IMG/VR virus record: IMGVR_UViG_3300037054_000205
Location: 1-59,698 of that record
DNA: 59,698 nt
Strand: one strand, 5' to 3'
Origin: a virus
Taxonomy: Duplodnaviria; Caudoviricetes
Positions 3,714 to 36,768 of the stretch are shown in pieces. Every line of letters starts with the position of its first letter. Positions within the stretch are counted from its first letter, which is position 1. The position numbers were made by a program, and so were the translations under genes. The notes below the pieces were generated by a model. It worked only from the letters and a program-made list of their open reading frames with translations, was not told the DNA's origin and ran no database searches.

Positions 3714-3992
3714 ATGGCGCAATGGTCGGAGAAAGCAATCGCAGAGCGAGTCGCCGCAAAGAACGCGGGCATCATCGAAGAACGGATAGCCCTGTTCAAT
3801 ACGTTTCGTGCTGGCGGCTGGGAAATCCGGGTCATCGACCCGATGCAGGACCGAACCATCCTCAAGCAAACCGATATCTGGTTCAAGCCCGGGATTGGCG
3901 CGCACTTCCTGGTTAAGATGCCCGGAGCCTATCCGATGCGCATCAGGACCGTCGAACAACTTCGAAGACTTGCGAACGGGGTGACGCGATGA
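3714..3992 (+). CDS. hypothetical protein
   Basis: AGGAGG RBS. Confidence 0.75.
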   Translation: MAQWSEKAIAERVAAKNAGIIEERIALFNTFRAGGWEIRVIDPMQDRTILKQTDIWFKPGIGAHFLVKMPGAYPMRIRTVEQLRRLANGVTR

Positions 3993-16280: not shown

Positions 16281-18191
16281 GTGTTCGAAGTCGACGACGA
16301 CCTACTCAAAAAGTATAAAGCCTCCATCGACCTCTCCAACTTCCCTCGGGAGTTCGTGAGGCAATTCAATTTGACGCATCCTGATAGCCAAGAGTTATGG
16401 TACCGTGAACGGTTCAAGTGCCTGAAGTACCACGTCTATCTCAGCGGTTACGCCGAAGCCACTAAGGCGGGCGATGAAGACAAGCCCATCAATTACGTGC
16501 CGATTCTTGGGATGGACTTCCAACCAGACCCCCACAATATCTTGTTCAGCCGCTTTGTCCAAAAACGCCCGGGAGAAAACAAAGTATTCCTGGACCTGGA
16601 ACTTCTCGCCAAAAAGATGATGATACTCTGGCCGCGAGGATTGTTCAAAACCTCTGCGGTCATTGTGGACATCGTTCAGACCATTCTGAACTACCCCAAC
16701 ATTCGCATATGCTTCCTGACGGGCGGCGACCAACTCGCCAAGCGGCAATTGGAGCGCGTGAAGCGCGTGTTCGAGAAGCCTTCACCCCGATTCAAGTGGT
16801 TGTTTCCCGAATTCTGTTTGAAGGATGTGCGCAACCGGAAAGTCAAGAACGATGACAGTGAGGCTGCGTGGACATCTGAACTTTGCAAGATGGGAACGCA
16901 ACATGAGTTCACGGTCCCGTGTCGGACGAACCTGACGTTCGCCGAACCGACGTTCGCTATTTCAACCGCGAAGTCCGTTAAGGCCGGGTCGCACTACGAC
17001 ATCATCTACATCGACGACTTGGTGAACGAACAAAACTACCGCAGCATTCCCATGTTGGAGAAATGCTACGACGACTATATCGCCATATGCCCGTTGCTTG
17101 AACCCTCGGGCTATATCGTCATGACCGGAACGCGGTACTCGTTCGGCGACACGTACGAACGCATTCAGGAGTTGGCGCACGACGAAGATAAACGAGAAGG
17201 TCGCAGCATTTGGAGGTTTTCGATTCGGGATTGCTGGAGTCATGGTTGCCAGAATTGCGTCCATACCAGCGTCTATCACGACTTCGAAAAGAACATCATA
17301 GAGCCGCCATGTATTATGCCCGGATGCGCGTGCCCGGGATTCAAAGACCGTGGCGATAAAGGCGTGCTGTTTCCGCTGACTCGGTCAGTAGACGGCAGAC
17401 CTATTGGGCACACCGTAGAAATGTTGGAGGCAAAACGCAGAGAGTATGGTCAGGAGTTCTTCGCAAACCAATACGAGAACTGCCCCATCGCGGCGGGAAC
17501 GCAGACCTTCGACGAAAATATGATAGGGGCTCAGACGTTCCACAACTTGAATCAGATGCCGTCCGACCCGAGCGGGTTCACCTTCGCAGTCGGGGACCTC
17601 GCGTACGTGGGTCAACCTGACCGCGACTACTCGGTGATTTACATCTGCAGGGCAATCCAAGGTCGCATCTGGGTGTACGACTGTCTTTTTGGGAACTGGG
17701 ACTCGGGGCAGGTCGCCGACGTCACGGTTGACGAAGTACTGTTAAAGTTCCGTCCGAACATCGTCTATTATGAAAAGGTCAACGGCTGGGACGGGTTCGA
17801 TAAACTCATCGCGGCGGCGGCGGCCACGCGCGGGATGCCCAAGGTCCCGCTGCAGTGGGAAAAGGGCTCGCAGGCTAAGAACGCCAAGATGCGGCGTATC
17901 GGCGATATCAAAGGCTGGATTACGAGTCGGCGCCTTTGGATTTACGGAGGGATGCGCGGGTACGATAAACTGGTTGCGCAACTCACCCATTGGCCGAAAC
18001 ACGGACGCCACGACGACTTTGCAGACTGTATGGGCATGGTGGTGGCGGCGCCGACCGGAGTGCAACTCAGCGCACCCCCGCCCGCCGACGACTCGGGGAA
18101 CTGGCTGCGGAAACTGCATGACATGAACCCTACCGGGCCGGGCAGCGATGCATACCCAGACAATGGATGCGGAAGCGGTGTCACATGCTAG
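16281..18191 (+). CDS. terL: terminase large subunit
   Basis: WPRGLFKTS Walker A variant, GSHYDIIYIDD Walker B, GTRY, GDLAY...DYS, HDDFADC nuclease motifs. Confidence 0.92.
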   Translation: MFEVDDDLLKKYKASIDLSNFPREFVRQFNLTHPDSQELWYRERFKCLKYHVYLSGYAEATKAGDEDKPINYVPILGMDFQPDPHNILFSRFVQKRPGENKVFLDLELLAKKMMILWPRGLFKTSAVIVDIVQTILNYPNIRICFLTGGDQLAKRQLERVKRVFEKPSPRFKWLFPEFCLKDVRNRKVKNDDSEAAWTSELCKMGTQHEFTVPCRTNLTFAEPTFAISTAKSVKAGSHYDIIYIDDLVNEQNYRSIPMLEKCYDDYIAICPLLEPSGYIVMTGTRYSFGDTYERIQELAHDEDKREGRSIWRFSIRDCWSHGCQNCVHTSVYHDFEKNIIEPPCIMPGCACPGFKDRGDKGVLFPLTRSVDGRPIGHTVEMLEAKRREYGQEFFANQYENCPIAAGTQTFDENMIGAQTFHNLNQMPSDPSGFTFAVGDLAYVGQPDRDYSVIYICRAIQGRIWVYDCLFGNWDSGQVADVTVDEVLLKFRPNIVYYEKVNGWDGFDKLIAAAAATRGMPKVPLQWEKGSQAKNAKMRRIGDIKGWITSRRLWIYGGMRGYDKLVAQLTHWPKHGRHDDFADCMGMVVAAPTGVQLSAPPPADDSGNWLRKLHDMNPTGPGSDAYPDNGCGSGVTC

Positions 18192-18236: not shown

Positions 18237-18716
18237 GTGTCAAATATACGTGGAAGTCAGTGGAGCAAACTGGCCGAAACCCCTTTTCGGATTGAAAATA
18301 GCAGGAGAAAATACCGATGTTCTCACGGGCGAAGACAAGATGCTTGTAGAGAATGCGGCGGGCTCAAATTAGCCGTTCGGTGCATGTACTATTCCGCCCG
18401 AACTCGGGCGCGTCGGGACGGAATACCGTTTACCATCTTGCGAGCGGAGATTTGGGATTTGGTAGGCGACGGGGTTTGTCCTGTGTTGGGTATTCGCTAT
18501 GAATTTGCGACTCAAAAAGGACAAGGAGGGTGTGATAGTTCGCCATCCCTTGACCGATTTTACCCCGAGCGTGGGTATGTCGCTGGGAATTGTTTTGTAA
18601 TCTCCAGCTTAGCCAACAGAATCAAAAATAATGCCACTTCTCCGCAAGTGGCTCAAGTGGCAACTTGGATGAAACAGACGGAAGAACAGATGGAGATTAC
18701 TTATGGCCGAGATTAA
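18237..18716 (+). CDS. HNH-like homing endonuclease
   Basis: CPVLG...SPSLDR...GYVAGNCFVISSLANRIK. Confidence 0.8.
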   Translation: MSNIRGSQWSKLAETPFRIENSRRKYRCSHGRRQDACRECGGLKLAVRCMYYSARTRARRDGIPFTILRAEIWDLVGDGVCPVLGIRYEFATQKGQGGCDSSPSLDRFYPERGYVAGNCFVISSLANRIKNNATSPQVAQVATWMKQTEEQMEITYGRD

Positions 18717-20937
18717 CAAAAAAAATGTGAACGCTACGGAGCATTTCACAGATTCTGGCCAAATCCGCATCATCGAACTGCCTGGAGCAATCCCGTACGG
18801 CGAGACCGCGATGCCGATTACCGCCGCGCAGGTTGCTTTCGACGACCAGTTGCGTTCTGACGTATCCATGCTACAGGAAGCGAACCTGAATCGCGAGGAA
18901 TCCGAAAGTTTTATCGCTACCCGTGGCTTGATTGGACGCTGGAACCTCGCGGAACTGATGTTACGCGCTTGGGTAGAGCCCGTGAAGTGGAAAGGGAGCG
19001 AGCAATTTCGGTCTCACCTCGGGGTACCCCTTGTCGCGGAGCAATTTTATAGCATTCACAGTGTCGTCAACCAAACTTTATTTGGCGGCTACCAAATTTT
19101 CAAAGTGGATGCGACTTCAGGCACGCCGTTGGATTGCGCCGAAGCCCAGCAAGCCATCCTGAACGCGCAGTTGAAGACCTGCGGGTACAAAGGCGTCTCA
19201 GCCAAGACCGAATTCCGCGAAATCACCTACGACGGACTGTTCTACGGGTTCGGCGTGGCTCACTACGGCTGGCAGAAGACGAAACAGAACATCATCAAGA
19301 AGGTGGCGAAATTCCATCCGCAGACGACCGTCGTAAACGGGGTCGCGGTGACGGTTCCGGTCGCAGATGAAGACGATTACACAGAAGAGATTGTCGGCGT
19401 GCTGGAATTCAATCAGCCGAAAATTGAACATGTGCCGATTCGGCGCTATCGTTATGCTCCTGACCTTCGTCGCGGCGACTCGCGCACCGCTGAATGGAGC
19501 GGGCGCCTACTTTATGTGACGTCCTATGACCTGGATGGGCTCCGAAACACGGACGGGTGGAAGATTCCTACCCGCGCCCAACTGGTAGCCCTCACAACTC
19601 CGCAAATGCAGAACAACGCGACCACGAACCCGCTCGAAACGATGGGTTCGAACACAGGACAACCGATTTTCCAGCAAACCACAACTCCGCAGAAGGCGTT
19701 GCCCGAAAATTACACCGAACGTACCGCGCATGACCCGTTGATGCGGAAATTCGAGCTATTCGACTACTGGACGAGCCTGCGGCATGTGATTATTCTCAAT
19801 AGAGAGTACGTGCTGCTGAATGAAACGCACAAATTCGGTCGTCCACCGTTTTTGAGTTTCTGTTTCCGCGCCGCGCCCGATTCCGCGCATGGATATGGCA
19901 TTGCTTTCTGGCTTACTGACTTTCAACGCATATGCAATGGCGTTATCAACTCGTTTTTGGACGATATGAACCTGAACATGATGGGAACCTACACCGCGCC
20001 CGCTGGCACCAACAACAGCGCTCAGGCTCAGTGGATATTCCCGGGGAAAATCTTCAAATCCGACACCCCGAACGGTAAAATCGAAGCTTTGACACGCAAC
20101 GGCATCGACGCGAAGGAACCTTTGGCGGTTATCGCGCAGATGAAGGCGTGGGCGGCGTCAATCACTGGCGCAGGCCCGGGTACCCTTGGGTCCAACCCCG
20201 GCGCGGCTGGGGATATGCGCACTCCTGCGGGAGTTGAAGCTTTGTCGGGCGGCGAATCGGTCAAGTTGCAAGATTTGGTGGATGTAATCTCCGAACAGGT
20301 ATTCGTTCCGTTCTTGGAGTTCTGTATTGACCAGAATCAGAAGTTGAAGCCGTCGCAACTGCGCGCGATGCTGTCGCAAGCTCTTGGTGAGGCATTCAAA
20401 GCCACGCCGCTGGACATTCTCAACGGCACCTACAAAGTTGACATCTCCGCAGCGACGAAACTCGCGGCGCGCGAAGCGTTGAATAAATACATGGGAATTC
20501 TGCAGACATTCTTGAGTTCCCCGGGCACCGTCGAGAACCTCGCTACGCAGGCGATGAAGTTGGACTACAACGCGATGTTCTCGGCCCTATATGACTCCTT
20601 CGGCGTCCCGTACAAGGAAAAGATTATCGTGCCGATGAACGACGACGACAAACAACGGCTGGCGGCCATGAAGAACCAGCAACAGCCGCAGGATAAGATG
20701 TCGTTGATTAAGGCTCAGGGCGAATCGAAGAAAGACATCGACAACAACCAAGCCGAGAATCGCATGCTGATTGAGACGGGCAAACACACACTCAATACAC
20801 ACGGCGCGGACCATCAAGCGACCATCGACCAAGCGCAAGCGAAGGCGGAAGCCGCCACGCCCCAAGCACAGGGTCTCGACCGGGCGGCGAAGGGTTCATT
20901 CGCCAATATGGATAAAGCCGCATTTCCAGGCAAGTAA
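18703..20937 (+). CDS. portal protein
   Basis: 744 aa, lies between terL and scaffold/capsid; DGLFYGFGV and helical C-terminus. Confidence 0.8.
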   Translation: MAEINKKNVNATEHFTDSGQIRIIELPGAIPYGETAMPITAAQVAFDDQLRSDVSMLQEANLNREESESFIATRGLIGRWNLAELMLRAWVEPVKWKGSEQFRSHLGVPLVAEQFYSIHSVVNQTLFGGYQIFKVDATSGTPLDCAEAQQAILNAQLKTCGYKGVSAKTEFREITYDGLFYGFGVAHYGWQKTKQNIIKKVAKFHPQTTVVNGVAVTVPVADEDDYTEEIVGVLEFNQPKIEHVPIRRYRYAPDLRRGDSRTAEWSGRLLYVTSYDLDGLRNTDGWKIPTRAQLVALTTPQMQNNATTNPLETMGSNTGQPIFQQTTTPQKALPENYTERTAHDPLMRKFELFDYWTSLRHVIILNREYVLLNETHKFGRPPFLSFCFRAAPDSAHGYGIAFWLTDFQRICNGVINSFLDDMNLNMMGTYTAPAGTNNSAQAQWIFPGKIFKSDTPNGKIEALTRNGIDAKEPLAVIAQMKAWAASITGAGPGTLGSNPGAAGDMRTPAGVEALSGGESVKLQDLVDVISEQVFVPFLEFCIDQNQKLKPSQLRAMLSQALGEAFKATPLDILNGTYKVDISAATKLAAREALNKYMGILQTFLSSPGTVENLATQAMKLDYNAMFSALYDSFGVPYKEKIIVPMNDDDKQRLAAMKNQQQPQDKMSLIKAQGESKKDIDNNQAENRMLIETGKHTLNTHGADHQATIDQAQAKAEAATPQAQGLDRAAKGSFANMDKAAFPGK

Positions 20938-22756: not shown

Positions 22757-23752
22757 TTGATTCTACCTCCCGGCGTAGTCAGCACTACCTTAGCGGCTTT
22801 TCCGCAGATTGCTTACGACCGCACCGCCATTCTCGAATGGCAGTTCAATACACCTGTCTTGGAAGAGCTTTGCGACTTCCGTCCGCTGCCTCGGCGTTCG
22901 GGTCGGACGCTTCAGTTCTACGGGCAGACCCCGTTCGCTGCTGCGACCTACGACCTGTCCGAAGGTATTCCGGGTCCGTCACTCCAACTGAACCAAGTGT
23001 TCAGCGATGCATTCGCCGAGGAATACGGCGACTGGATTGGCGTGAGTAACGTAGCCCAGCAAATGTTCCTCGCGGACATTACGCTGGACGCCACCCGCAA
23101 CCTGTCTTACCGTGGCGCTCTCACGAGCAACTTGATTGCGATTAACGGATTCGAAGCTGCCTCAGTCGCGCAGCCGTCCGCCCGCATCGACCTGCTCGAC
23201 AACGAGTTTATGCTTTCCAACACCATTCGGAAGTGCGAATCCCAGTTGATGGGCAACGCTGTTCCGGGTCGTGATGGCGGGCTCTACACGGCTGCGATGC
23301 ATCCTTACGTTGTGTACGACTTCATGTCGGACAACAGCGCCGGGTCTGCCGTCGACGTGATGAAACGCAGTGAAGCTGGCTCGGCTGTCCTGAAGTCGGA
23401 CATGACGCGCGGCTACACCGTGCTGGAGTGGGCTGGCGTTCGAATCATACGCACCCAGACCACGCCGACCTACAGCAATTATCCTTCGGCGGGCAAGACT
23501 GGTTACGCCTCGTACGTGGTTGGCCGAGAAGCCATGATGGCTTCCGAGTTACTCGGCACCCGCGTCCCCCGCAACCCCAGTTTCAAAGTGAACGTGAAGA
23601 CCTTCGGCGACAACGACATCGACTTGTCGAACCCGATGCTTCAGACTCGCGCGATTGTTTCTTACGATTGGTTCCTTGGGGTCGTTGCGAGGCCAAACAC
23701 CAATAATACACCAGGATTCAGGCGTGTTCGTGGTGAAGTTTCCGCCGTGTAA
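22757..23752 (+). CDS. major capsid protein (N4-gp56-like)
   Basis: PLPRRSGRTLQF, LSEGIPG, EYGDWIGVS, MHPYVVYD, GVRIIRT; TTG start with AAGGAG. Confidence 0.88.
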   Translation: MILPPGVVSTTLAAFPQIAYDRTAILEWQFNTPVLEELCDFRPLPRRSGRTLQFYGQTPFAAATYDLSEGIPGPSLQLNQVFSDAFAEEYGDWIGVSNVAQQMFLADITLDATRNLSYRGALTSNLIAINGFEAASVAQPSARIDLLDNEFMLSNTIRKCESQLMGNAVPGRDGGLYTAAMHPYVVYDFMSDNSAGSAVDVMKRSEAGSAVLKSDMTRGYTVLEWAGVRIIRTQTTPTYSNYPSAGKTGYASYVVGREAMMASELLGTRVPRNPSFKVNVKTFGDNDIDLSNPMLQTRAIVSYDWFLGVVARPNTNNTPGFRRVRGEVSAV

Positions 23753-24528: not shown

Positions 24529-25155
24529 ATGGTCGTATACACGATAGTCAACAGTGAGACCTTAAAGATTTACATCGGACAGCACAATCGAGAGGACGAC
24601 CTAGGAAAGTATTTTTCAAAGAAATTTTACGATGCTCAACGTAAATCGGGAAAACGTTCGCACATCTACGCAGCGATGCGAAAATACTCCCGAGACAAGT
24701 GGAGCATTCACCCATTGATTTCAGGAATCGCGGATAAAAAAGAACTTGACGAAACCGAACAGCTTTTGATTTACGCACTGAACGCGCAGCATCCCGATGT
24801 AGGCTACAACATTTGTGATGGCGGCGAAGGTTTCACAGGACCCCAGTCGCCTGAAGCCAAAGCCAAAATCTCAGCGGCGCTAACAGGTCGTCCCGTGTCC
24901 GCAGAGACTCGTGCCAAAATCGGCGCATCCCAGCCTCGGTCAGCCGCTCAGTTGGCAGCCATTGACCGTACAGGAAAACCTCACACCCCTGAAACTATCG
25001 CAAAAATGATGGGCAACCAAAACTGTCTGGGTCGGGTAAACTCTGAAGAGACTTTGGTAAAGATGCGGGAGTCGGCGAAGATGCGGGGTATCTCACCAGA
25101 AACAAAGAAGAAGATGCAGGATGCTCGGTTTTTGAAGACCGTAGCGTGGGGATAG
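24529..25155 (+). CDS. GIY-YIG homing endonuclease with NUMOD3-type repeats
   Basis: VVYTIVN...KIYIGQ, GYNICDGGEG, SAETRAKI repeats. Confidence 0.88.
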   Translation: MVVYTIVNSETLKIYIGQHNREDDLGKYFSKKFYDAQRKSGKRSHIYAAMRKYSRDKWSIHPLISGIADKKELDETEQLLIYALNAQHPDVGYNICDGGEGFTGPQSPEAKAKISAALTGRPVSAETRAKIGASQPRSAAQLAAIDRTGKPHTPETIAKMMGNQNCLGRVNSEETLVKMRESAKMRGISPETKKKMQDARFLKTVAWG

Positions 25156-25158
25156 GAA

Positions 25159-25181
25159 CAAGACCTTTCAAACCATACATG
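25159..25181 (+). promoter_or_regulatory. phage-specific (late) promoter-like motif
   Basis: CAAGAC-CTTTCAAAC-CATACATG. Confidence 0.6.
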
Positions 25182-25194
25182 AGAGGTGAATTAT

Positions 25195-25401
25195 ATGAGT
25201 GGATTATTGGTTCCCCTAGGGTTCCCGACAGTGAATGCTGGCGGCACCGAAGGATTAGGTGTTGGCGTGCGGACAGACAATCTCACGCTTGTTGCGCCGA
25301 ACGGCACGAGCGGCACGCGCGCGCAAATCGCAGCGGATATCGCAGCGGTGCTCGCGGGCGGCGGACAGAACGTGTTCGGCTTGCAAGGAAACACGCGCTA
25401 A
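25195..25401 (+). CDS. small Gly-rich hypothetical protein
   Basis: GAGGTG RBS. Confidence 0.65.
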   Translation: MSGLLVPLGFPTVNAGGTEGLGVGVRTDNLTLVAPNGTSGTRAQIAADIAAVLAGGGQNVFGLQGNTR

Positions 25402-25422
25402 TTTCGAACGGGAGGAAAGATT

Positions 25423-25629
25423 ATGTCTGTACTCACACCACACATTGGGATAGGAACTGCGTCCCTTAAATCTCCGCTCATCACCCCGGGCTGGCCGCTT
25501 GCGTCTGTGCCCGCCTCGAACCCTATCGCGGGAAATCCCGGGACGACTCCGGGAATGAATACGACCGACGCTGCAGATTTGCTTGCTGCGGCAACCGCAG
25601 CGGGGAACCAAAACAACTCAGTCCTGTAA
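25423..25629 (+). CDS. small hypothetical protein
   Basis: GGAGG RBS. Confidence 0.65.
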   Translation: MSVLTPHIGIGTASLKSPLITPGWPLASVPASNPIAGNPGTTPGMNTTDAADLLAAATAAGNQNNSVL

Positions 25630-28437: not shown

Positions 28438-31400
28438 ATGGCCAACGGCGACCCAACAACGACTCCGACCGTGACTCCCCCCGCTGCCCCGGCAGCGCCT
28501 GACGCCACCCCTGCGCCTACTGACGAAGGGCTGCTGCATTCCTTCGCTACTGGATGGGGAGTTGACCCCGAGGCTGTCAAATGGGCGGCTAAGACTATTT
28601 GGAATGACCCCATCGGGTCGGCCAAAGCCATAGGCGGCGCGCAGGTAGACGAACTCAAACATGCATTTACGCACCCGATAGAAGCCGCGAAGGAAGTAGG
28701 GGAGGGGGTAGTGTCCGCCGTCACCCCGAACCCTGATGCGGTAAAGACGGCGCAAGCCCACCTACACGCACCGGGGCTTGTCAATAAATTGGTGGGCGGC
28801 GCGGAGTATTTGACCAGCGGCGTACCGTTGTTCGGTGCGGCTGGCGTCAAGGCCGAGGAGCAGGGCGCGAAGGGAAATATCCCCGGCATGCTTGGCACCA
28901 CGGCGGCTGTCGCCTCGCAAGTTTTCGCTGGCGGAAAAGCTGGCGAAGAATCGCCCAAACTTTCGAAGGAAACGAAGCTGGGGTCTGTTTCCCCCGAGGC
29001 TGGAAAAACTCCCGGCGAACTTGAACCGTTGAACCGTGCGAATGCGAAAACACTACAAGACCTGGGGTACTCCAACCAAACTATCACGAACTTGAATGCC
29101 ACCGAAGTTGACCATATTCTCAAGAACAACATTCCGGCACCCCCACGCGTCGACCTGACAAGCGAGGGCGCGAAAGAAGTCATGCCCGCCCCGCATATGC
29201 ATCCTCCCGCCGAAGATGTGGCGGCTACTGCTGCGGCTGCGGCGGAACCCGCAGACCTTCAGATGGGCGAATCTCGCAAAATAGATGTCCCGAAAGGAAG
29301 ACAGGGCTCGGACGCGCAGGTTATCCAAAAAGGGGGATGGCTCCTGCCTAATGGACAAAACTACGTGCATCCTGACCTTCACATGACTCATGGCGAATCT
29401 GCACTGGACGCGGGTTTTAGTGGACTTGGAGTGGTGAATCCATCCACCGGATTGGATATGCCCGATGCACTAACTGCGCGCATCCAGGCGTTGCGGAGTG
29501 GGGCCATTCGTTCTACTCTCGACCGAAAAGGAACGACCACCTTAGAGTTGTTTGGCATCACTGAAGAAAGTAAGCCGCGCTTGTTAGACGCGCTGGCAGT
29601 CGCACCGCCTCATAAGCCTGTATTTATTGCACATGCTGGAGGTAGAGGGGCCGAATTTCAAAACTCCAACTCAACCCAACAGTTTAGCAATCCCGCAGAG
29701 GCAATTGATTGGGTTGACCGCCAAGCAACGGTCAGTTCCATTCAGACAGGCGAGTCCAAGGGACCGTTAGCGAAACTCGGTATTGATACCACCACGCTGA
29801 AACCACCAAAGGGACAGGGACGGCGAGCCTTTGACCGCCCTGAGGGCGAGCCCGCAACAGGCGCGGAAGAAACTCCGACCACTGGGGCTACTTCAGACAA
29901 GGGCATCTTAGGCAGACTAGGCATTGACACCACTAAACTCCCGCCCGCGCCTGGGCAGGGCAGTCAAGCGTTTGACCGTCCGCAAGGAGGACACGCGGGC
30001 GGCGGCGTTGCGTCCCTCGAAGAATTGAATCGTCCTGGCCGCTTTGTTTCCGTTGACCGCGCGGGCACGACTAGTGACCAAGGAAAAACTCCAGACTTTA
30101 ATTTGCGTCCAGGCTCGGTCGGGTATCAAGTCAAGCCTGACGGCACGCACCAACTGATTGATGGGCAGGAAACTCCTACGCATAAAGCCGCCATTGAGAA
30201 TTACAAGCAGAACGTGTACCCGAGTCCTGCGCCCGAGCATCTCAACACCCTCGCCAAGCGCGGACAACTCGAAGGGCAGAGGTATAATCTCGGAGATATT
30301 GATGGCGCCACGTATCGCGGCGGCCTCGACCAATCACCGCGCCCGGGGTCCGAGGACGCGACGGACAAACTTCAGATGGGTGAGCGTCAATCACCGCTCA
30401 AGGAACCGTATACGGTTGAAGTGACGGACCAAGATGGAACCAAGCACACCGAGACGATTGAGGGATTCTCCTCGAAAAACGCGCTGGCGGCGGCGCAAAA
30501 ACAATTCCCGAACGGGTACAACTGGAGCCTCGCGTCAGGAAAGTCAGATGGACCCAGGACCCTGTCGACGGAATACACTCCCGGAACCAAGAAGCCCCTA
30601 TCCATGCGGGCTTCGAATACTGGCAGAACGGCGCGAGAGCGACGTGGGCATGAAGTCGGGCATGTAATGGAAGCGCAAGCGGTGGGGATAAAGCAACTTG
30701 GGATAGCGAGAAGTTCGCATCCAGATAATCGAGGAGATTATGACACCTTCGCCATCTTCTCAGGCGAAGGGGTATACGTTCCTGGGACGAGGGTCATCAA
30801 GCCGGAAAGGCGGATGGACGTCGTACGCCTTCTGGTGGGGGGCATCGCGAGAGATGAAGGCGCTGGATTGCATCGCGCTTCCAACCATAATTTCAGCATT
30901 AATCTTGAGGGTTCTGACGGTCATCAAGCCTACAGCATTTTGACGGCGGCAGACTACACGCATGAGAACGCAATGGACCGCATGAACCAACTCATAGACA
31001 TAGCTGCGGACCATCAGTCCAGACCTCACGTTGCCAGTGTCATCGAAGAGAATCTCGATACCCGCGAAGAGGGGCTATCTCGGCATTACGACTACAGTCC
31101 CGAGCGGTTGGATAATATGTGGGCTGAATCCCAGAGGAGAGCACAAAATGCAACCGAAAAGCGTGACGCTGCAGGAAATGGCGCAGGACTTGCTGAAGGA
31201 AGCCCAGAAAGCCTCGCCCGAGGAGAAAGCGGAATTTCGAAAGCAATTGGACCAGTATCTGAAGGACCAGATAGCGGCCCTGAACCCGGAGCAAAAGGCG
31301 AACTTTCTCAAACTCCAGGCGCAGAGAAAGAAGACCTCACCGCAGGAGCCAGCAAAGTAGCCCCCACTACAGGTGAGGAAGTGATTGCCAAACTAGAGAA

Positions 31401-34400
31401 ACCCCCTATCGGCTTCCAAGACGCTAAACCAATTCCGTATTCCTCCGACGCAGAGTTTACCAATCGAACCGCCCCTTCCATGATTCTGCCTGATGGCAGA
31501 ATTATCAACGCGCGGCTGGCTCATACTGAAATTGCGGCGGCTGCTGGTTTTAAGGATACTGGGTCATCGCTGGATAAAACGTACGTTTCTGGCGTAACCG
31601 CTTTTCAACGGGCAACCGGAGTGGTGCGAGTTATCTACCCCGAGCACGGCGGAAATATAGGCATTGAAATACACCAACGACCCTCTAATGACCAGTTAGG
31701 CATCATTGGAAAGAATCTAAAGAATGCGACTGCAGCGGGCAAGGGTGATGGTTCCCTGACGTGGGATTTGGCAGACGCTAACGGCAAATTCACATCGGGT
31801 CACGGGTCTATCGGGGATTTTCGGCGCGCGGTAGATACCGCTTATCTAGAGCAAGGTCTATCCAATCGCGTGAACTCCGCGCCCGTCACAAAGACGCCGA
31901 AACTACAAGCGGGCGAGATTAAAGGTGACGCTGTCGACAAGCCCGCTGCGACGTACCATGAAGCTGCCGCGACCGAAGGAAACCCGTGGGTGCGCCGTTC
32001 CGCTGACCCCGCCGACGACGCCGCCCCGACAAACAAGGGTCGGCAGGTAATGGTACAGTTCAGTTCTGACCTCATCAACAAGGACCTTCCGTCTGGCACA
32101 GGCGGGGCATATTATGACAAGCTGTACGGCGGCGCGCGCCCCGGCTACGCGCGCATGCAGGATACCTGGGAGATTCCGCAATGGATGGGATTTGCTTCCC
32201 ATGCACTGCCAAAAGCAGATGTCTATTTTGTCCGCGACATGGCGCAAGCGAAAAAGTTCTTGAACGAGGCGGGTTACGACCGCGCGCTCTTCAGCGCGCT
32301 GGACGTAAACACCCCGCTGATTAAGGAATTGGCGAAAGGTTACAAGGGCGCGGTGGACGTCGGCGGGTATCAGAAGCCTGGGACGTTCCTGGACAGCCCG
32401 AACGTCACGTACCATGCGTCTATCCAGGACATGATGAACCACCCCTACTATAAAGGGCAGGGCCTGGAATATAAGAACGGCACCGACTATCGGCACTTCG
32501 AAGGTTCTGATGTCATCCCTCGCCTGACCATGTCCGATGGCTGCTTGCACAAGTGCGCGTTCTGCGTGGTGGAAAAGAAGATTGACGTTACCCCGGAGAG
32601 CGTGGTCGACCAACAGGCTGAATCCATTGCAAAGCTCGGCGCGAAGCTGGTTTACCTGAATGACAAGACCTTCGGGCAAGCGTCAAACTATCAACATCTG
32701 TCCGACGTGTACGCGAAGATGAAAGAAGCGAATCCCGCGTTCCACGGCTTCGTCGTGCAGACCACTGCCGCCCAAATGGGCAAGATTCCTTCTGACTGGT
32801 TGCAGAAGTCGGGCATCAAGTATGTGGAACTCGGCATTGAAAGTTACAATGACCCCATCCTAAAGGAAATGCACAAGCCCGCGAACCAGAAACTGATTGA
32901 CGCGGCCACGCAGAAACTACGCGAGAACGGTATCGCGCTCATTCCGAACATCCTGGTCGGCTTGCCCGGCGAGACCGCGCAAACATACGCCAACACCCTG
33001 AAGTTCCTGCAGGATAACAAAGACATCATCTCGCACGCGAACATCTACAACCTCGCGCTGTATGAGAATTCAGAGTTGGGCAAGAAACTGACGACCGCCA
33101 ACCCCGACGACTTCAACGAGAACGTATTGGAGAAGTCATTCCACTCCGACCCCGCAGTGCATAAGCAGTTCGCGGGTGACCTGTACGGCGCTGCGCAGGA
33201 CATGTTAGACCAACCGCCCCCAAGCGCGACGAAGACGAATGAACCCGCTACGCTGCAGATGGGCTTTGCAAAACAGAAAGCTAAGGCTAAAGACCAAGCC
33301 CCGAAAATTACGGACATGACTGCGGAGGATTTGGCGTTCGACAAGAGGCACGCCGAGTTTGCTGCGCCCGATGCGGCTGCGGAAGAACCAGTGACGCCGA
33401 CTCGCGAAACAATCGTCGCCGCTAACGCCGACATTAAAGAGCGGCAGCGGATTCAAGACCATTTAGCAAAGGTGGATAAAAGAAATCAACCCGCCGAAGC
33501 TGCGGCTCCTGAAGTCGCGCGCACTGCCACGTCCCAAGAAGCCATTGCCAACATCGTCAAAAACAACGAGCATGACGATTACAAGGTTACACCCCCAGGC
33601 AAGGCCGTAGCGCGAGACGCTTATGGGTATTTGCTGGCTGATGGGAGTCTGGTCGAGAACGCCGACGATACCCGCGAGTACACCCATTCCCAACTTGCCG
33701 ACTTGTTGGACTGGGATGATATGAGGAACGCAAACGCCATCCGAACTAATGGTCCCGATAACATTGAGGTTCTGCATGACGCCCCGACCGAACAACAGCG
33801 CGGGGAAATAGCCCGATTCGTCAAAGAGGGCGGGAAAGACAAACTTACTTGGGACTTCCATAAAATCACAGACTTCGATGGCTACGAGAATTTTCTGCGC
33901 GGCTCAGATTCTCTATATGGCGGGGAAGACAAACCACCTCTCGAAAGCGGCGAAGGTAGCCTCGGGGATTTCCTGCGCGCGGCTGATAAGTTCTACAAGA
34001 AGCCCGAGCCAGTTTCTGGGGGAGCCTCGATAGGCGACCGTCTCCAAACTGGATTTGCGAAGACCAAGAAGCCTGCCGAGGCTGCGGCTCCTGAAGCGGC
34101 ACTGAAGTTCACGCACAAAACTTTCGGAGTCGATGACTCCATTGCCCGCGTGTCTGCGCTCGATGCCAAGGGAGAGGATGTCGGACACGTCACTTACGGG
34201 TTGCCTAAACCCGCGAAGCGCACGGGGGATTTCAGTGCCACGATAGCGATGGCGGCGGTTGACACTCCAGGTCAAGGTCTGGGCCAGAAACTTTATCTGC
34301 AAGCGGCGGATGCGGCGAAGACCAAAGGCGCGCGGTATTTGGTCTCCGACGTGGCGCACGGGGTGGACCCGTCCGCTGTTCGTGTTTGGGATGCGCTCGT

Positions 34401-36768
34401 GGCAAAAGGATATCCCGTAGAAAAGCTGGGCGCGAAGAACTATCGTATGGACCTTTCGAAATTTCAAACGCCATCGAATGCGGCTCCTGTCCAGAGTATA
34501 TATGAGAAAAAGGGAGCCCAAGAATTAGCAGACCATATCGGCGGAAGAGTGGTCGGGTCCGTCGCCACAAAGGGCGTCTCAACCCATGATTTAGATTTGG
34601 CGGTTGACACCTATGACCAACCTAAGATTGAAGCGGCGATGAAAGCCCGAGGATTTGAGCCGATAGGTAGTTCAGTAGTGTCTCCTGCCGAAGCAAAAAC
34701 ATCTGGTAAGACTTTTGGCGGCGATTCTGCCGACTGGAATCGAGCACACCATTTTGAAAATAACACGACGCAATCAAAAGCCTCGGAACCTCGGCGGAGG
34801 GTGGATATTTGGAGCAAAGAACCCGCTGAAAGCGATGTCATCGACCACATCAAGTCGGGCGGGCAGTTCGGTGTCCTGACCGCCGAGAACCCGCAGAACA
34901 GAACGCTGTCGGCGAAAGAGAACGCTACTCGCAACGAGGCCCTGCGCCAGCAACTGGAAGCGCGCGGACACGACCCAATCCAGTTGACTGGGCACTCCGA
35001 TGCGGTTGGCCCGGCGACGGAGAATCCCTTCTTTGTGAAAGACCTTCCTGCGGCTGAGACGGCGGCGCTGGGGCGCGAGCACGGACAACAGTCCGTCCTG
35101 ACGCATCAAGGTCTGCACGACCTGAACAAGGATGTGGTGAATCCGCTCGACCCGTCGCAAGGAATCATGACGGGTCCTGATGCCGAGAAGCAGAAGTATT
35201 TCTCCAAGCATGATGGACAGGCGTTCTCTGCACCAGTTAATTGGGATAAGACGGTTGCGCCGGAAGGAAAAGGGGAGTCTCTCTCTGGGGTTCCTGTTGT
35301 GAGCACGCGGGTGCCGCACGGGACCCTGAATAAAGTAAAGTTCCAGCGGCATGAAGATACAACCCGCATGTCCGACATGGAAGCAGCGACGGCGGCGCCT
35401 GGATATCTGCAAAAGATGATGGACAAGGTACACGATATTCCCGGGTTTGTCGCGCCGCAGGGCGGGACCATTCAGGAGCAAACCGAAGCCTTTATTCAGC
35501 ACGGGCTGGACAACATAATGTTCGTTCACTCTAAGATGACACCTGAAAAAATCGCACTGAACAAGCAGTGGTACCCGGTTGGAGCGCATGGACGCGGAAT
35601 CATTCTCGCGCATCAAAATGGGATTACGCCCGCGCAAGCCTACGGCATCACGTCGGTCGAGTCGCCGCTAACGGACTGGGACCAGAACACATCCTTGGCC
35701 GAGCGTACCGCCAGCATCTATCAGCAACAGCAAAACACGCGCTTCACGCCGGAAATGGCAAAAGCCGCCGACGCGATTCTTACCATACCCGCTATGGCAG
35801 GATTCAAAAAATCGTTTAGTTTGCTTCGCGGGAAGACTCTCGCCGAACTACCGGATATCGAGGATAAGGCATACTGGCTACGCATCTACGACGAAGCCCA
35901 CAACCCCCGCGAGTATATGCAATGGAACGCGGACGGCACCCAGGCGGGCATCGCTAGGAGCATGGACGGCACGCCAAGGGCAGTAGGCTGGAGTTTCTTC
36001 ACTCATATTGAGAAGGCAATCAGGATTGCCCAGGACGGGTCTCCAGAAAATATCAGTCGACAACTAGGGCTGAATCATAAGGTGCGGAACTTCTACAACA
36101 ACCAAGCCGACCCAGACAACCCGCGATACCTGACCATCGACACCCATGCGGGCGCCGTAGCGCAGTTGCGCCCGTTGTCGGGAGGGCATCCTGACATTTT
36201 CCACATCTTCGGGAATCCATCCAACAACGCGTTTGGTCTCTCTGGCACCTATCCGCTTTATGACGAGATGTACAGGCGGGCAGCGAAAAAACTTGACGAA
36301 CCTATCCCGAGCAGGGTACAATCGTCCGTATGGGCGGAGATTCGAGAAGTGTTCAACGACGATTTTAAGACGCCAGAGAATCTGGCCGCAGTAGACGCGA
36401 TTTGGAAGGAGTCGACCGATGGCAAAATCACAGCCGACGAAGCCCGAAACAGAATCTGGGACTTCGCAACTCGATGGAACAGAGAAGCTGCTGAAAAAGG
36501 GCGGGCTTCCGATAACCAGGGAAAACTATTTGCTCCTGACGTTTCTGGGACACCCGCCAGCGGAACCCCTGAGCGAGGAAATGGAGCAGGAGTTGCCCCA
36601 CCACCTGCAGCGGAAGAGGTAGGCGATACCTCGTTTGACTTCGGTGCGAACGTCAAGCCGGAAGCGGGCAGCTTCGGGCGGGCGCCGAAAAAGAGCAAGG
36701 CGAAAACGCAACTGAACGCCGTAGACCTCCTGAAGGCTTTGAGCAACCTGAAGAAACCCGCACGCTAG
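28438..36768 (+). CDS. giant multidomain (polyvalent-type) protein, probably virion-injected: zincin protease, radical SAM, GNAT, nucleotidyltransferase, DUF3293-like, glycosylase-like domains and three copies of an unknown domain
   Basis: 2776-aa ORF; HEVGH, CLHKCAFC, GQGLGQKLY, GS..DLD, LTAENP, KVRNFYNN..TIDTHA motifs. Confidence 0.85.
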   Translation: MANGDPTTTPTVTPPAAPAAPDATPAPTDEGLLHSFATGWGVDPEAVKWAAKTIWNDPIGSAKAIGGAQVDELKHAFTHPIEAAKEVGEGVVSAVTPNPDAVKTAQAHLHAPGLVNKLVGGAEYLTSGVPLFGAAGVKAEEQGAKGNIPGMLGTTAAVASQVFAGGKAGEESPKLSKETKLGSVSPEAGKTPGELEPLNRANAKTLQDLGYSNQTITNLNATEVDHILKNNIPAPPRVDLTSEGAKEVMPAPHMHPPAEDVAATAAAAAEPADLQMGESRKIDVPKGRQGSDAQVIQKGGWLLPNGQNYVHPDLHMTHGESALDAGFSGLGVVNPSTGLDMPDALTARIQALRSGAIRSTLDRKGTTTLELFGITEESKPRLLDALAVAPPHKPVFIAHAGGRGAEFQNSNSTQQFSNPAEAIDWVDRQATVSSIQTGESKGPLAKLGIDTTTLKPPKGQGRRAFDRPEGEPATGAEETPTTGATSDKGILGRLGIDTTKLPPAPGQGSQAFDRPQGGHAGGGVASLEELNRPGRFVSVDRAGTTSDQGKTPDFNLRPGSVGYQVKPDGTHQLIDGQETPTHKAAIENYKQNVYPSPAPEHLNTLAKRGQLEGQRYNLGDIDGATYRGGLDQSPRPGSEDATDKLQMGERQSPLKEPYTVEVTDQDGTKHTETIEGFSSKNALAAAQKQFPNGYNWSLASGKSDGPRTLSTEYTPGTKKPLSMRASNTGRTARERRGHEVGHVMEAQAVGIKQLGIARSSHPDNRGDYDTFAIFSGEGVYVPGTRVIKPERRMDVVRLLVGGIARDEGAGLHRASNHNFSINLEGSDGHQAYSILTAADYTHENAMDRMNQLIDIAADHQSRPHVASVIEENLDTREEGLSRHYDYSPERLDNMWAESQRRAQNATEKRDAAGNGAGLAEGSPESLARGESGISKAIGPVSEGPDSGPEPGAKGELSQTPGAEKEDLTAGASKVAPTTGEEVIAKLEKPPIGFQDAKPIPYSSDAEFTNRTAPSMILPDGRIINARLAHTEIAAAAGFKDTGSSLDKTYVSGVTAFQRATGVVRVIYPEHGGNIGIEIHQRPSNDQLGIIGKNLKNATAAGKGDGSLTWDLADANGKFTSGHGSIGDFRRAVDTAYLEQGLSNRVNSAPVTKTPKLQAGEIKGDAVDKPAATYHEAAATEGNPWVRRSADPADDAAPTNKGRQVMVQFSSDLINKDLPSGTGGAYYDKLYGGARPGYARMQDTWEIPQWMGFASHALPKADVYFVRDMAQAKKFLNEAGYDRALFSALDVNTPLIKELAKGYKGAVDVGGYQKPGTFLDSPNVTYHASIQDMMNHPYYKGQGLEYKNGTDYRHFEGSDVIPRLTMSDGCLHKCAFCVVEKKIDVTPESVVDQQAESIAKLGAKLVYLNDKTFGQASNYQHLSDVYAKMKEANPAFHGFVVQTTAAQMGKIPSDWLQKSGIKYVELGIESYNDPILKEMHKPANQKLIDAATQKLRENGIALIPNILVGLPGETAQTYANTLKFLQDNKDIISHANIYNLALYENSELGKKLTTANPDDFNENVLEKSFHSDPAVHKQFAGDLYGAAQDMLDQPPPSATKTNEPATLQMGFAKQKAKAKDQAPKITDMTAEDLAFDKRHAEFAAPDAAAEEPVTPTRETIVAANADIKERQRIQDHLAKVDKRNQPAEAAAPEVARTATSQEAIANIVKNNEHDDYKVTPPGKAVARDAYGYLLADGSLVENADDTREYTHSQLADLLDWDDMRNANAIRTNGPDNIEVLHDAPTEQQRGEIARFVKEGGKDKLTWDFHKITDFDGYENFLRGSDSLYGGEDKPPLESGEGSLGDFLRAADKFYKKPEPVSGGASIGDRLQTGFAKTKKPAEAAAPEAALKFTHKTFGVDDSIARVSALDAKGEDVGHVTYGLPKPAKRTGDFSATIAMAAVDTPGQGLGQKLYLQAADAAKTKGARYLVSDVAHGVDPSAVRVWDALVAKGYPVEKLGAKNYRMDLSKFQTPSNAAPVQSIYEKKGAQELADHIGGRVVGSVATKGVSTHDLDLAVDTYDQPKIEAAMKARGFEPIGSSVVSPAEAKTSGKTFGGDSADWNRAHHFENNTTQSKASEPRRRVDIWSKEPAESDVIDHIKSGGQFGVLTAENPQNRTLSAKENATRNEALRQQLEARGHDPIQLTGHSDAVGPATENPFFVKDLPAAETAALGREHGQQSVLTHQGLHDLNKDVVNPLDPSQGIMTGPDAEKQKYFSKHDGQAFSAPVNWDKTVAPEGKGESLSGVPVVSTRVPHGTLNKVKFQRHEDTTRMSDMEAATAAPGYLQKMMDKVHDIPGFVAPQGGTIQEQTEAFIQHGLDNIMFVHSKMTPEKIALNKQWYPVGAHGRGIILAHQNGITPAQAYGITSVESPLTDWDQNTSLAERTASIYQQQQNTRFTPEMAKAADAILTIPAMAGFKKSFSLLRGKTLAELPDIEDKAYWLRIYDEAHNPREYMQWNADGTQAGIARSMDGTPRAVGWSFFTHIEKAIRIAQDGSPENISRQLGLNHKVRNFYNNQADPDNPRYLTIDTHAGAVAQLRPLSGGHPDIFHIFGNPSNNAFGLSGTYPLYDEMYRRAAKKLDEPIPSRVQSSVWAEIREVFNDDFKTPENLAAVDAIWKESTDGKITADEARNRIWDFATRWNREAAEKGRASDNQGKLFAPDVSGTPASGTPERGNGAGVAPPPAAEEVGDTSFDFGANVKPEAGSFGRAPKKSKAKTQLNAVDLLKALSNLKKPAR
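31148..31360 (+). CDS. nested +1-frame gene inside the giant ORF (70 aa, helical)
   Basis: AGGAG at 31135-31139, 8 nt before ATG; MQPKSVTLQEMAQDLLKEAQKASPEEKAEFRKQLDQYL... Confidence 0.6.
   Translation: MQPKSVTLQEMAQDLLKEAQKASPEEKAEFRKQLDQYLKDQIAALNPEQKANFLKLQAQRKKTSPQEPAK
36419..36622 (+). CDS. nested +1-frame gene inside the giant ORF (67 aa)
   Basis: AAGGAG at 36406-36411, 7 nt before ATG; protein-like GLPITRENYLLLTFLGHPP...EQELP. Confidence 0.65.
   Translation: MAKSQPTKPETESGTSQLDGTEKLLKKGGLPITRENYLLLTFLGHPPAEPLSEEMEQELPHHLQRKR

Follow-up and report, generated by a model that had tools for sequence, protein, structure and literature searches.

Can the linker of a giant phage protein hold a second gene?

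Might the linker between two domains of a giant phage protein hold a second gene, read out of frame, and might the product of that gene act on the domain just ahead of it? This is the question raised by IMG/VR virus record IMGVR_UViG_3300037054_000205 (Duplodnaviria; Caudoviricetes), of which positions 1-59,698 were analysed, a stretch of 59,698 nt that we call the window. In it a giant open reading frame (ORF) encodes a multidomain protein of 2776 aa, and directly after a part of this protein that is predicted to fold like the FtsH/M41-type zincin peptidases, a Shine-Dalgarno sequence and an ATG open a small ORF in frame +1 relative to the giant one (Table 1). We think that this nested ORF is a real gene, translated on its own, and that the peptide it encodes is a partner of the peptidase domain; we would put the probability of that reading as a whole at roughly 0.6. 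The place had been picked out beforehand in a reading made from the letters of the window and its list of ORFs (the sequence-only reading), and much of what was said there has proved exact: AGGAG, ATG and TAG lie at precisely the coordinates that it gave, the ORF that they delimit has 70 codons, and the nested stop, placed by that reading at an LTAGASK linker, coincides with K-V of main-frame LTAGASKVA. Its description of the main frame across the overlap as G/E/S/P-rich filler is also apt, since the linker reads NATEKRDAAGNGAGLAEGSPESLARGESGISKAIGPVSEGPDSGPEPGAKGELSQTPGAEKEDLTAGASKVA, which is rich in G, E, S, P and A; here the frame is kept open and the amino acids are poorly conserved.

Is the nested ORF a gene?

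Here we are highly confident that the answer is positive, and comparison with relatives argues for it. In 16/16 distinct loci a giant ORF contains a homologous +1-frame ORF of 39-70 aa, a count from which duplicate or identical loci are excluded (L011, L014, L015, L018, L021, L024, L025, L028-L032 and L034-L040). All 15 distinct loci tabulated for start signals have an ATG with GGAG 5-8 nt upstream, and the sixteenth, L033, which stands outside that table and outside the selection statistics below, has AGGAG, then 8 nt, then ATG. In the window the AGGAG is encoded by main-frame Arg codons, AGG-AGA, AGR making up only 15% of the Arg codons in window genes; in L008 and L016 the Arg-Arg pair is written AGA-AGA and inserted Leu-Gly codons provide the AGGAG instead, which argues that the Shine-Dalgarno sequence is kept at the nucleotide level. 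These start signals make it very likely, to our minds, that the nested gene initiates independently. The sequence-only reading had staked itself on the ribosome-binding site, the ATG and the open +1 frame being conserved in homologues, and the hypothesis survived this check among sequences that are well diverged: the nested peptides are 23-98% identical (28 pairs of 8 sequences), and the peptidase domains of the relatives are only 25-37% identical to that of the window (8 rows).

Selection was compared in both frames, as had been proposed, among 15 distinct sequences taken two at a time (105 pairs, not independent of one another). Across the nested region the proportion of nonsynonymous differences (pN) is lower than that of synonymous differences (pS) in 104/105 pairs when the nested frame is read (mean amino-acid identity 0.42), and in 1/105 when the main frame is read (identity 0.29), pN exceeding pS there in 104/105. 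In the 60 codons upstream, pN is below pS in 105/105 pairs for the main frame and 43/105 for the +1 frame (identities 0.56 and 0.29), and in the 60 codons downstream the corresponding values are 98/105 and 49/105 (identities 0.27 and 0.17). Summed over the 105 pairs, differences at nested codon positions 1, 2 and 3 number 2147, 1161 and 2095. Even the closest pair, L009/L013, is instructive, as its 6 nucleotide differences fall 1/0/5 on nested positions 1/2/3 and change one amino acid in the nested frame and five in the main frame, and a first set of 28 pairs gave 27/28 both ways, the exceptions being L012-L016 and L007-L008. On these comparisons the nested frame is under purifying selection, with the main frame over the overlap behaving as a passenger linker. 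This bears out the earlier claim that a second gene is read out of frame here.

How were the relatives found? Simple searches yielded almost nothing: there was no match for the region by blastn/tblastn against 50,697 phage records, tblastn of P0001 against the same records gave only matches at E 0.8 and 5, and no match came from word-based protein searches with giant-protein residues 720-1130 at near and shorter lengths, from single-sequence scans of viral and metagenome contigs, from scans of viral contigs with P0003 and the two-row alignment A1, or from a scan with the P0013/P0006 alignment (A7). Library-wide HMMER with the 70-aa peptide gave one match, P0003 (E 1.7e-4), which holds the peptide motif twice in one frame. 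A degenerate motif scan of viral contigs led to a 39-codon ORF nested, again at +1, within a 1980-codon ORF and right after a homologous HELGH domain, and the giant protein concerned is 36% identical to that of the window over 299 residues (E 1.65e-34); two further motif-scan matches, L002 and L003, look like chance or unrelated sequences. Alignment scans seeded with the domain then gave 10 related loci (3 viral, 6 metagenome and 1 from a genome collection), which with the window make 11 sequences, and a +1 ATG ORF is present in 8/8 distinct ones. A scan seeded with the peptide only gave 12 viral loci; in each the small ORF is +1-nested within a host ORF whose length ranges from 1296 to 2019 or more codons, and in 12/12 the zincin hidden Markov model (HMM) match of the host ORF ends just ahead of the nested ORF. 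A further peptide-seeded scan added five identical viral contigs, L033-L037, which are the 16th distinct locus and again +1-nested. Finally, a word-based search with a peptide profile returned 8 called small proteins, P0006-P0013 (E 3e-12 to 1e-5), from short metagenome contigs. Among these, P0006/P0013 and P0007/P0008 have conserved C-terminal additions (…EVMDFFEKLKTE.VKY.M, or …EQQLFLNF.PEGK.VN), and they and P0003 could be stand-alone or longer nested forms.

One of the relatives, L016, is CABMCB010000010.1, a 57.7-kb contig titled 'uncultured archaeon isolate LFW-28', which carries the giant gene, the nested gene and a bacterial-type Shine-Dalgarno sequence; it is probably a phage co-binned in a metagenome-assembled genome.

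What are the domain and the peptide?

The peptidase domain bears the zinc-site motif HEVGH, and its AlphaFold2 model, from a 9-row alignment, has a predicted local distance difference test score (pLDDT) of 85.2 and a predicted template modelling score of 0.82, with residues 1-23 of the 216 modelled being disordered. When the model is compared with known structures by VIA-align, the top 22 rows are all FtsH/M41-type chains (Z 14.5-10.3, root-mean-square deviation 2.6-4.6, 119-169 residues aligned), the best being 3kds_E (Z 14.5, deviation 3.0, 154 aligned), and the next family follows at Z 8.3. The best Foldseek matches are likewise all FtsH chains but weak (top 3kds_F, E 3e-3), and in the ESM Atlas the domain falls closest to a cluster named 'Peptidase M41 domain-containing protein' (score 0.94). 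The Pfam family Peptidase_M41 (PF01434) matches neither the whole protein at E<=0.1 nor 9 domain sequences at E<=1, and no Pfam AAA domain is found in the 2776-aa protein. Because a Pfam M41 match and an AAA+ module are both absent, the domain is best described as M41-like by predicted fold, with an HExxH motif, yet not an FtsH. The earlier placement of the nested gene right after a zincin domain thus agrees with both the motif and the predicted fold. PHROGs and Pfam offer nothing meaningful for the domain or the nested peptide, and a PDB sequence search gave no significant match for either.

The peptide, for which SVTLQEMAQDLLK may serve as an example segment, is built around the core motif (L/V)T.(E/Q)(E/Q)(L/M)...(S/T)PE(E/Q)KA..R..L, and its residues ~45-70 are a lineage-specific repeat of that motif, a duplication that accounts for the 70-aa length in the window, at the top of the family range of 39-70 aa. 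AlphaFold2 models the peptide alone as helices 8-21, 24-43 and 47-63 (pLDDT 68), and the first of these is amphipathic, with a hydrophobic moment of 0.62 that is matched by 0.1% of shuffles. There is no apparent hydrophobic, signal-peptide-like N-terminus and likewise no lipoprotein signal; a search of the window with the nested-peptide HMM brings up no other copy, and 16 family members have no meaningful Pfam match at E<=0.01. The nested gene is absent from Pfam and PHROGs, and so uncatalogued in them.

Does the peptide act on the domain?

We consider it likely that the nested peptide binds the peptidase domain, on the strength of predicted complexes. Three runs with peptide and domain gave interface scores (ipSAE) of 0.88, 0.89 and 0.88, the best of 3 controls gave 0.00, and the mark applied to this score is reached by 58/80 solved complexes and 2/110 mismatched pairs, counts that apply here only roughly, as our own alignments were used. 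The runs share at least 81% of their contacts and the partner pLDDT is at least 80. The predicted interface comprises His55 of HExxH, strand 84-90 and helices ~102-112, 143-153 and 161-175, with peptide residues 6-7 lying on strand residues 86-87. Recall of a solved complex by the predictor is unlikely, since PDB sequences include no relative of the peptide or of the domain. A partner acting as inhibitor or chaperone, which the sequence-only reading had suggested, fits this predicted binding.

How might such a pair work? The nested gene would be translated on its own from the conserved GGAG and ATG, without frameshifting, and a helical peptide of 39-70 aa would bind the peptidase domain freshly made from the same mRNA. 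Its N-terminal segment would run along the beta-strand of the domain beside the HExxH helix, with the helices packing on 102-112, 143-153 and 161-175. The peptide would thereby most probably be a cis-encoded safety catch or an assembly chaperone, which in the producing cell keeps the domain masked or in its proper fold, and placement in the linker would hold domain and partner together as a single shuffling unit. As to which of these roles applies, that of inhibitor is possible, at somewhat less than an even chance, and that of chaperone or structural subunit is rather less probable again. An extension of the idea, which we regard as unlikely, is that domain and peptide form an 'enzyme plus antidote' cassette at the level of a single domain. 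The peptide would cover the domain during synthesis and packaging of the giant protein, and would afterwards stay behind or be degraded; once ejected into the next host, the domain, now free of its mask, would cleave the polyprotein to release its effector domains. If that were true, the out-of-frame linker gene would be a timer for a virion-delivered polyprotein, and the overlap would let the pair shuffle and duplicate as a unit among polyvalent proteins.

A duplication of this kind may already be visible. In several relatives a paralogous zincin-like domain (HDLAH, HDMAH, HDIAH, HEHGH or HEWAH) also lies further upstream, and other +1 ORFs follow it. The second-set +1 ORFs of 65-81 aa are L023:1767-1964, L026:2085-2300 and L024:2304-2549 (equivalent to the L006:8800-9054 region), and the domains preceding those of L023, L026 and L024 read HDLAH, HDIAH and HDMAH. 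The L023 and L026 ORFs are 54% identical, with pN 0.28 below pS 0.66 in their own frame and 0.37 above 0.29 in the main frame; the A5 nested-peptide HMM does not detect the second-set ORFs, L006:8800-9054 included. They may represent a paralogous nested gene, and domain and nested gene may thus have been duplicated as a module, a proposal that rests on two sequences. The notion that inactive first-copy domains have no nested gene was rejected, as other +1 ORFs follow them and two second-copy domains that have no catalytic Glu keep the gene.

Several observations weigh against the partnership as we have set it out. The binding is a prediction, and the alignments behind it are shallow (9 and 8 rows). 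Helices 24-43 and 47-63 of the peptide are not amphipathic by hydrophobic moment, so that of the earlier label 'amphipathic helical' the second word stands for the whole peptide and the first only for helix 8-21. In L017 and L026 there is an additional upstream in-frame ATG, and the start there was picked by alignment and Shine-Dalgarno sequence. Four of the called small proteins P0006-P0013 are extended at the C-terminus, and may come from stand-alone genes that serve a different role. Adjacency to the zincin domain is not absolute, as in L033-L037 the zincin core and the nested gene are separated by a different domain of ~200 aa. Last, the domains of L017 (HTIIH) and L019 (HTIRH) have lost the catalytic Glu and the nested gene is retained, which favours a structural partner over a peptide that does nothing but inhibit catalysis.

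In L033-L037 the nested ORF starts from ~nt 3977 and is preceded by a helix that resembles the last helix of the zincin domain (…AQKMHAEAQRRIAN); the arrangement suggests a domain insertion or recombination.

The strongest competitor to our reading keeps the embedded gene and drops the partnership. The product would not act on the peptidase domain at all, being host-directed, an anti-defence peptide or a regulator, and the linker, being under little constraint, would simply be a place that tolerates overprinting. The persistence of the gene beside HTxxH domains that have no catalytic Glu would be natural on that view, as would its position after a different domain in L033, and the feature neighbours of the peptide in the ESM Atlas are LTXXQ (CpxP/Spy-like) clusters, at scores of 0.80-0.83 that are under the 0.9 level and therefore a lead only. 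But many other linkers were available in these giant proteins, and 15/16 distinct loci nevertheless place the gene directly after the zincin domain, irrespective of which domain follows; the complex prediction passes where its controls score 0.00; and the first-copy domains have +1 ORFs of their own, as if the module had been duplicated as a unit. We therefore hold this explanation to be improbable, if well worth keeping in mind, and continue to favour a peptide that partners the domain.

Could the +1 signal arise in another way?

Programmed +1 (or -2) frameshifting would yield a truncated giant protein with a helical tail and no separate small protein. The window itself is accommodating here, with 48 open +1-frame codons ahead of the ATG, but 10/15 distinct loci have a stop in the +1 frame just 0-4 codons upstream of the start, which leaves hardly any room for entry. 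Nor would frameshifting have any need of the ATG and GGAG found in 15/15 loci; there is no conserved slippery motif, and the +1 reading ahead of the ATG is not protein-like. We regard frameshifting as very improbable.

What if the ORF is there by chance, in a compositionally biased linker that has no second product? Two features of the window would allow this, for neither is beyond chance in a single genome: the +1 stop-free run of 118 codons compares with a next longest of 104 in the same gene, and the window has 68 instances of GGAG-N4-9-ATG where 44±7 would be expected. The codons, on the other hand, tell against it. Main-frame GC content at third positions (GC3) across the overlap is 0.29 versus 0.60 gene-wide, and GC1/2/3 of the nested frame is 0.61/0.30/0.73, the usual coding pattern. 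A codon-usage model trained on 59 ORFs of the window favours the +1 over the main frame by 12.4 nats, a value matched by 44 of 13512 70-codon segments from 59 genes, and the segments in which +1 outscores the called frame form just 5 clusters. In 20000 main-frame synonymous shuffles the number of A-ending codons, 36/72 in reality, is 16.8±3.3 and never reaches 36, the +1 frame remains open in 14.6%, and the nested codon score stands at z=4.4. The coding signature in the +1 frame is confined to ~31132-31345, and the change points of the cumulative coding score, 31132 and ~31321-31345, fit the ends of the nested ORF. Taken with the ORF, ATG, Shine-Dalgarno sequence and peptide being kept across 16 distinct loci, and with the opposite selection signals of the two frames, this makes a chance ORF extremely improbable.

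The converse shuffles, synonymous in the nested frame, leave the main frame open in 8.6-8.8%, with a codon score z=3.1 above that of the open shuffles, so both frames look constrained. The more genome-typical codon usage of the nested frame hints that it is the older reading, by a measure that is confounded by linker composition. Other +1-favoured places in the window, 25146-25469 and 2431-2680 (in a crude gene list), are most likely mis-called frames or starts, not overlaps.

An assembly error or a recently compensated double frameshift, by which the +1 signature would be the fossil of an in-frame helical segment, could draw on the AAAA run at the ATG and on the doubled, single-frame motif of P0003, but it is hardly credible given that Logan contigs from other samples and studies cross both ends of the nested ORF with 0 gaps (31028-31281 in X2, 31085-31308 and 31358-31537 in X3, 31335-31485 in X4), which makes an assembly error unlikely, that the same +1 layout with stops flanking the small ORF recurs in 16 distinct loci with diverged domains, and that a fossil would not remain open with pN below pS. 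These contigs are near-identical, with 3 variable sites in 2.4 kb, none of them within the nested gene.

Several studies of peat have metagenomes with near-identical copies of the phage (window 30000-32400, runs X1-X4). At 31847 a T>C difference is found in all four runs, but a short conserved piece at that place, 31798-31850, also matches unrelated contigs.

How does this compare with known systems?

In phage lambda the small Rz1 gene lies wholly inside Rz, in the +1 frame, and its product binds that of the outer gene. The present gene is like Rz1 in being fully embedded on the same strand in frame +1 with a start of its own, and in the predicted interaction between the peptide and the protein encoded by the outer gene. 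It differs in that the host gene is a multidomain one of 2776 codons with the overlap limited to an interdomain linker, in that the partner is an FtsH-like peptidase domain, not a spanin, with no lipoprotein signal on the peptide, and in that domain and nested gene appear to move and duplicate as a module. A location wholly inside another ORF, a start and ribosome-binding site of its own and purifying selection on the embedded frame together place it among embedded genes of the Rz1 kind, as judged from sequence comparison.

On the functional side we would look to lambda CIII, whose amphipathic alpha helices and action as a competitive inhibitor and substrate of FtsH are described by Kobiler et al. 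2007 (PMC1838920). The likeness is that in both cases a phage encodes a short helical peptide whose counterpart has the fold of an FtsH-type metalloprotease, and the difference is that CIII is a free-standing gene acting on a host enzyme, whereas the putative target here is the phage's own AAA-less M41-like domain. By analogy, then, CIII seems the closest functional counterpart and Rz/Rz1 the closest architectural one.

For the giant protein the obvious comparison is with the polyvalent proteins, in which zincin-like domains have been proposed to process the polypeptide (Iyer et al. 2017, PMC5512222). These share with the window's protein their giant multidomain build, a zincin-like domain and a location near packaging and head genes; the domain here is distinguished by being specifically FtsH/M41-like by predicted fold. 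The word 'overlapping' has 0 occurrences in the text of Iyer et al. 2017, and the passages of it that were searched mention no embedded partner gene. A literature search of full texts, supplementary files aside, likewise found no polyvalent protein described as having a gene embedded in its own.

A last resemblance is to the LTXXQ/CpxP-Spy proteins (PF07813), which are also short and helical with LTxxQ-like motifs. Many nested peptides read LTTEQ, whereas the copy in the window reads VTLQE, and PF07813 matches neither P0001 (E<=0.1) nor 16 family members (E<=0.01).

Why does any of this matter? Same-strand embedded genes are missed by gene callers, and the present one has been kept in at least 16 distinct phage lineages from soil, peat and other environments, so that the interdomain linkers of giant phage proteins can conceal genes. 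It is a well-supported candidate for dual coding in the gene of a giant 'polyvalent' phage protein, it points to a possible way to restrain the ubiquitous zincin domains of such proteins, and it offers a small predicted peptide-protease pair with an FtsH-like fold that is experimentally tractable.

Where did the nested gene come from, and what surrounds it?

The sequence-only reading had proposed that a free-standing two-gene cassette was captured in frame. A stand-alone pair of peptidase and small gene is found in none of the 16 distinct loci with DNA, all of which are already nested; an origin by capture would be one possibility.

The giant gene lies downstream of the packaging and head genes (Table 1), and virtually all genes of the window are on the + strand. 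Its protein has Pfam matches to Radical_SAM, DUF3293 and DUF7178 (E<=0.1) and holds many unrelated domains, a zincin-like fold among them, near the TerL, portal and head genes, which makes it a polyvalent protein. It is presumably packaged into the virion.

Table 1. Positions in the window of the nested gene, its host gene and neighbouring features
Feature	Position (nt)	Strand	Remarks
Nested +1-frame gene	31148..31360	+	ATG 31148; 70 codons; TAG 31358-31360
Shine-Dalgarno AGGAG	31135..31139	+	8 nt ahead of nested ATG
Main-frame reading across overlap	31147..31362	+	interdomain linker; giant-protein residues 904-975
FtsH/M41-like zincin peptidase domain of giant protein	30568..31146	+	from predicted fold and HEVGH; giant-protein residues ~711-903
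HEVGH zinc-site motif	30649-30663		in peptidase domain
Giant phage ORF hosting nested gene	28438..36768	+	2776 aa; multidomain, 'polyvalent'-type
TerL, large terminase	16281-18191		upstream of giant ORF
Portal	18703-20937		upstream of giant ORF
Major head protein	22757-23752		upstream of giant ORF

Elsewhere in the giant protein a small domain occurs three times, at residues ~300-400, 990-1090 and 1700-1800 (GGWLLPNG…, MILPDGRI… and YGYLLADGS…). A GNAT-like segment also occurs in relatives, with 52% identity over 46 aa, and the giant proteins of the window and of L006 have a C-terminal F(D/N)FGANVK motif in common.

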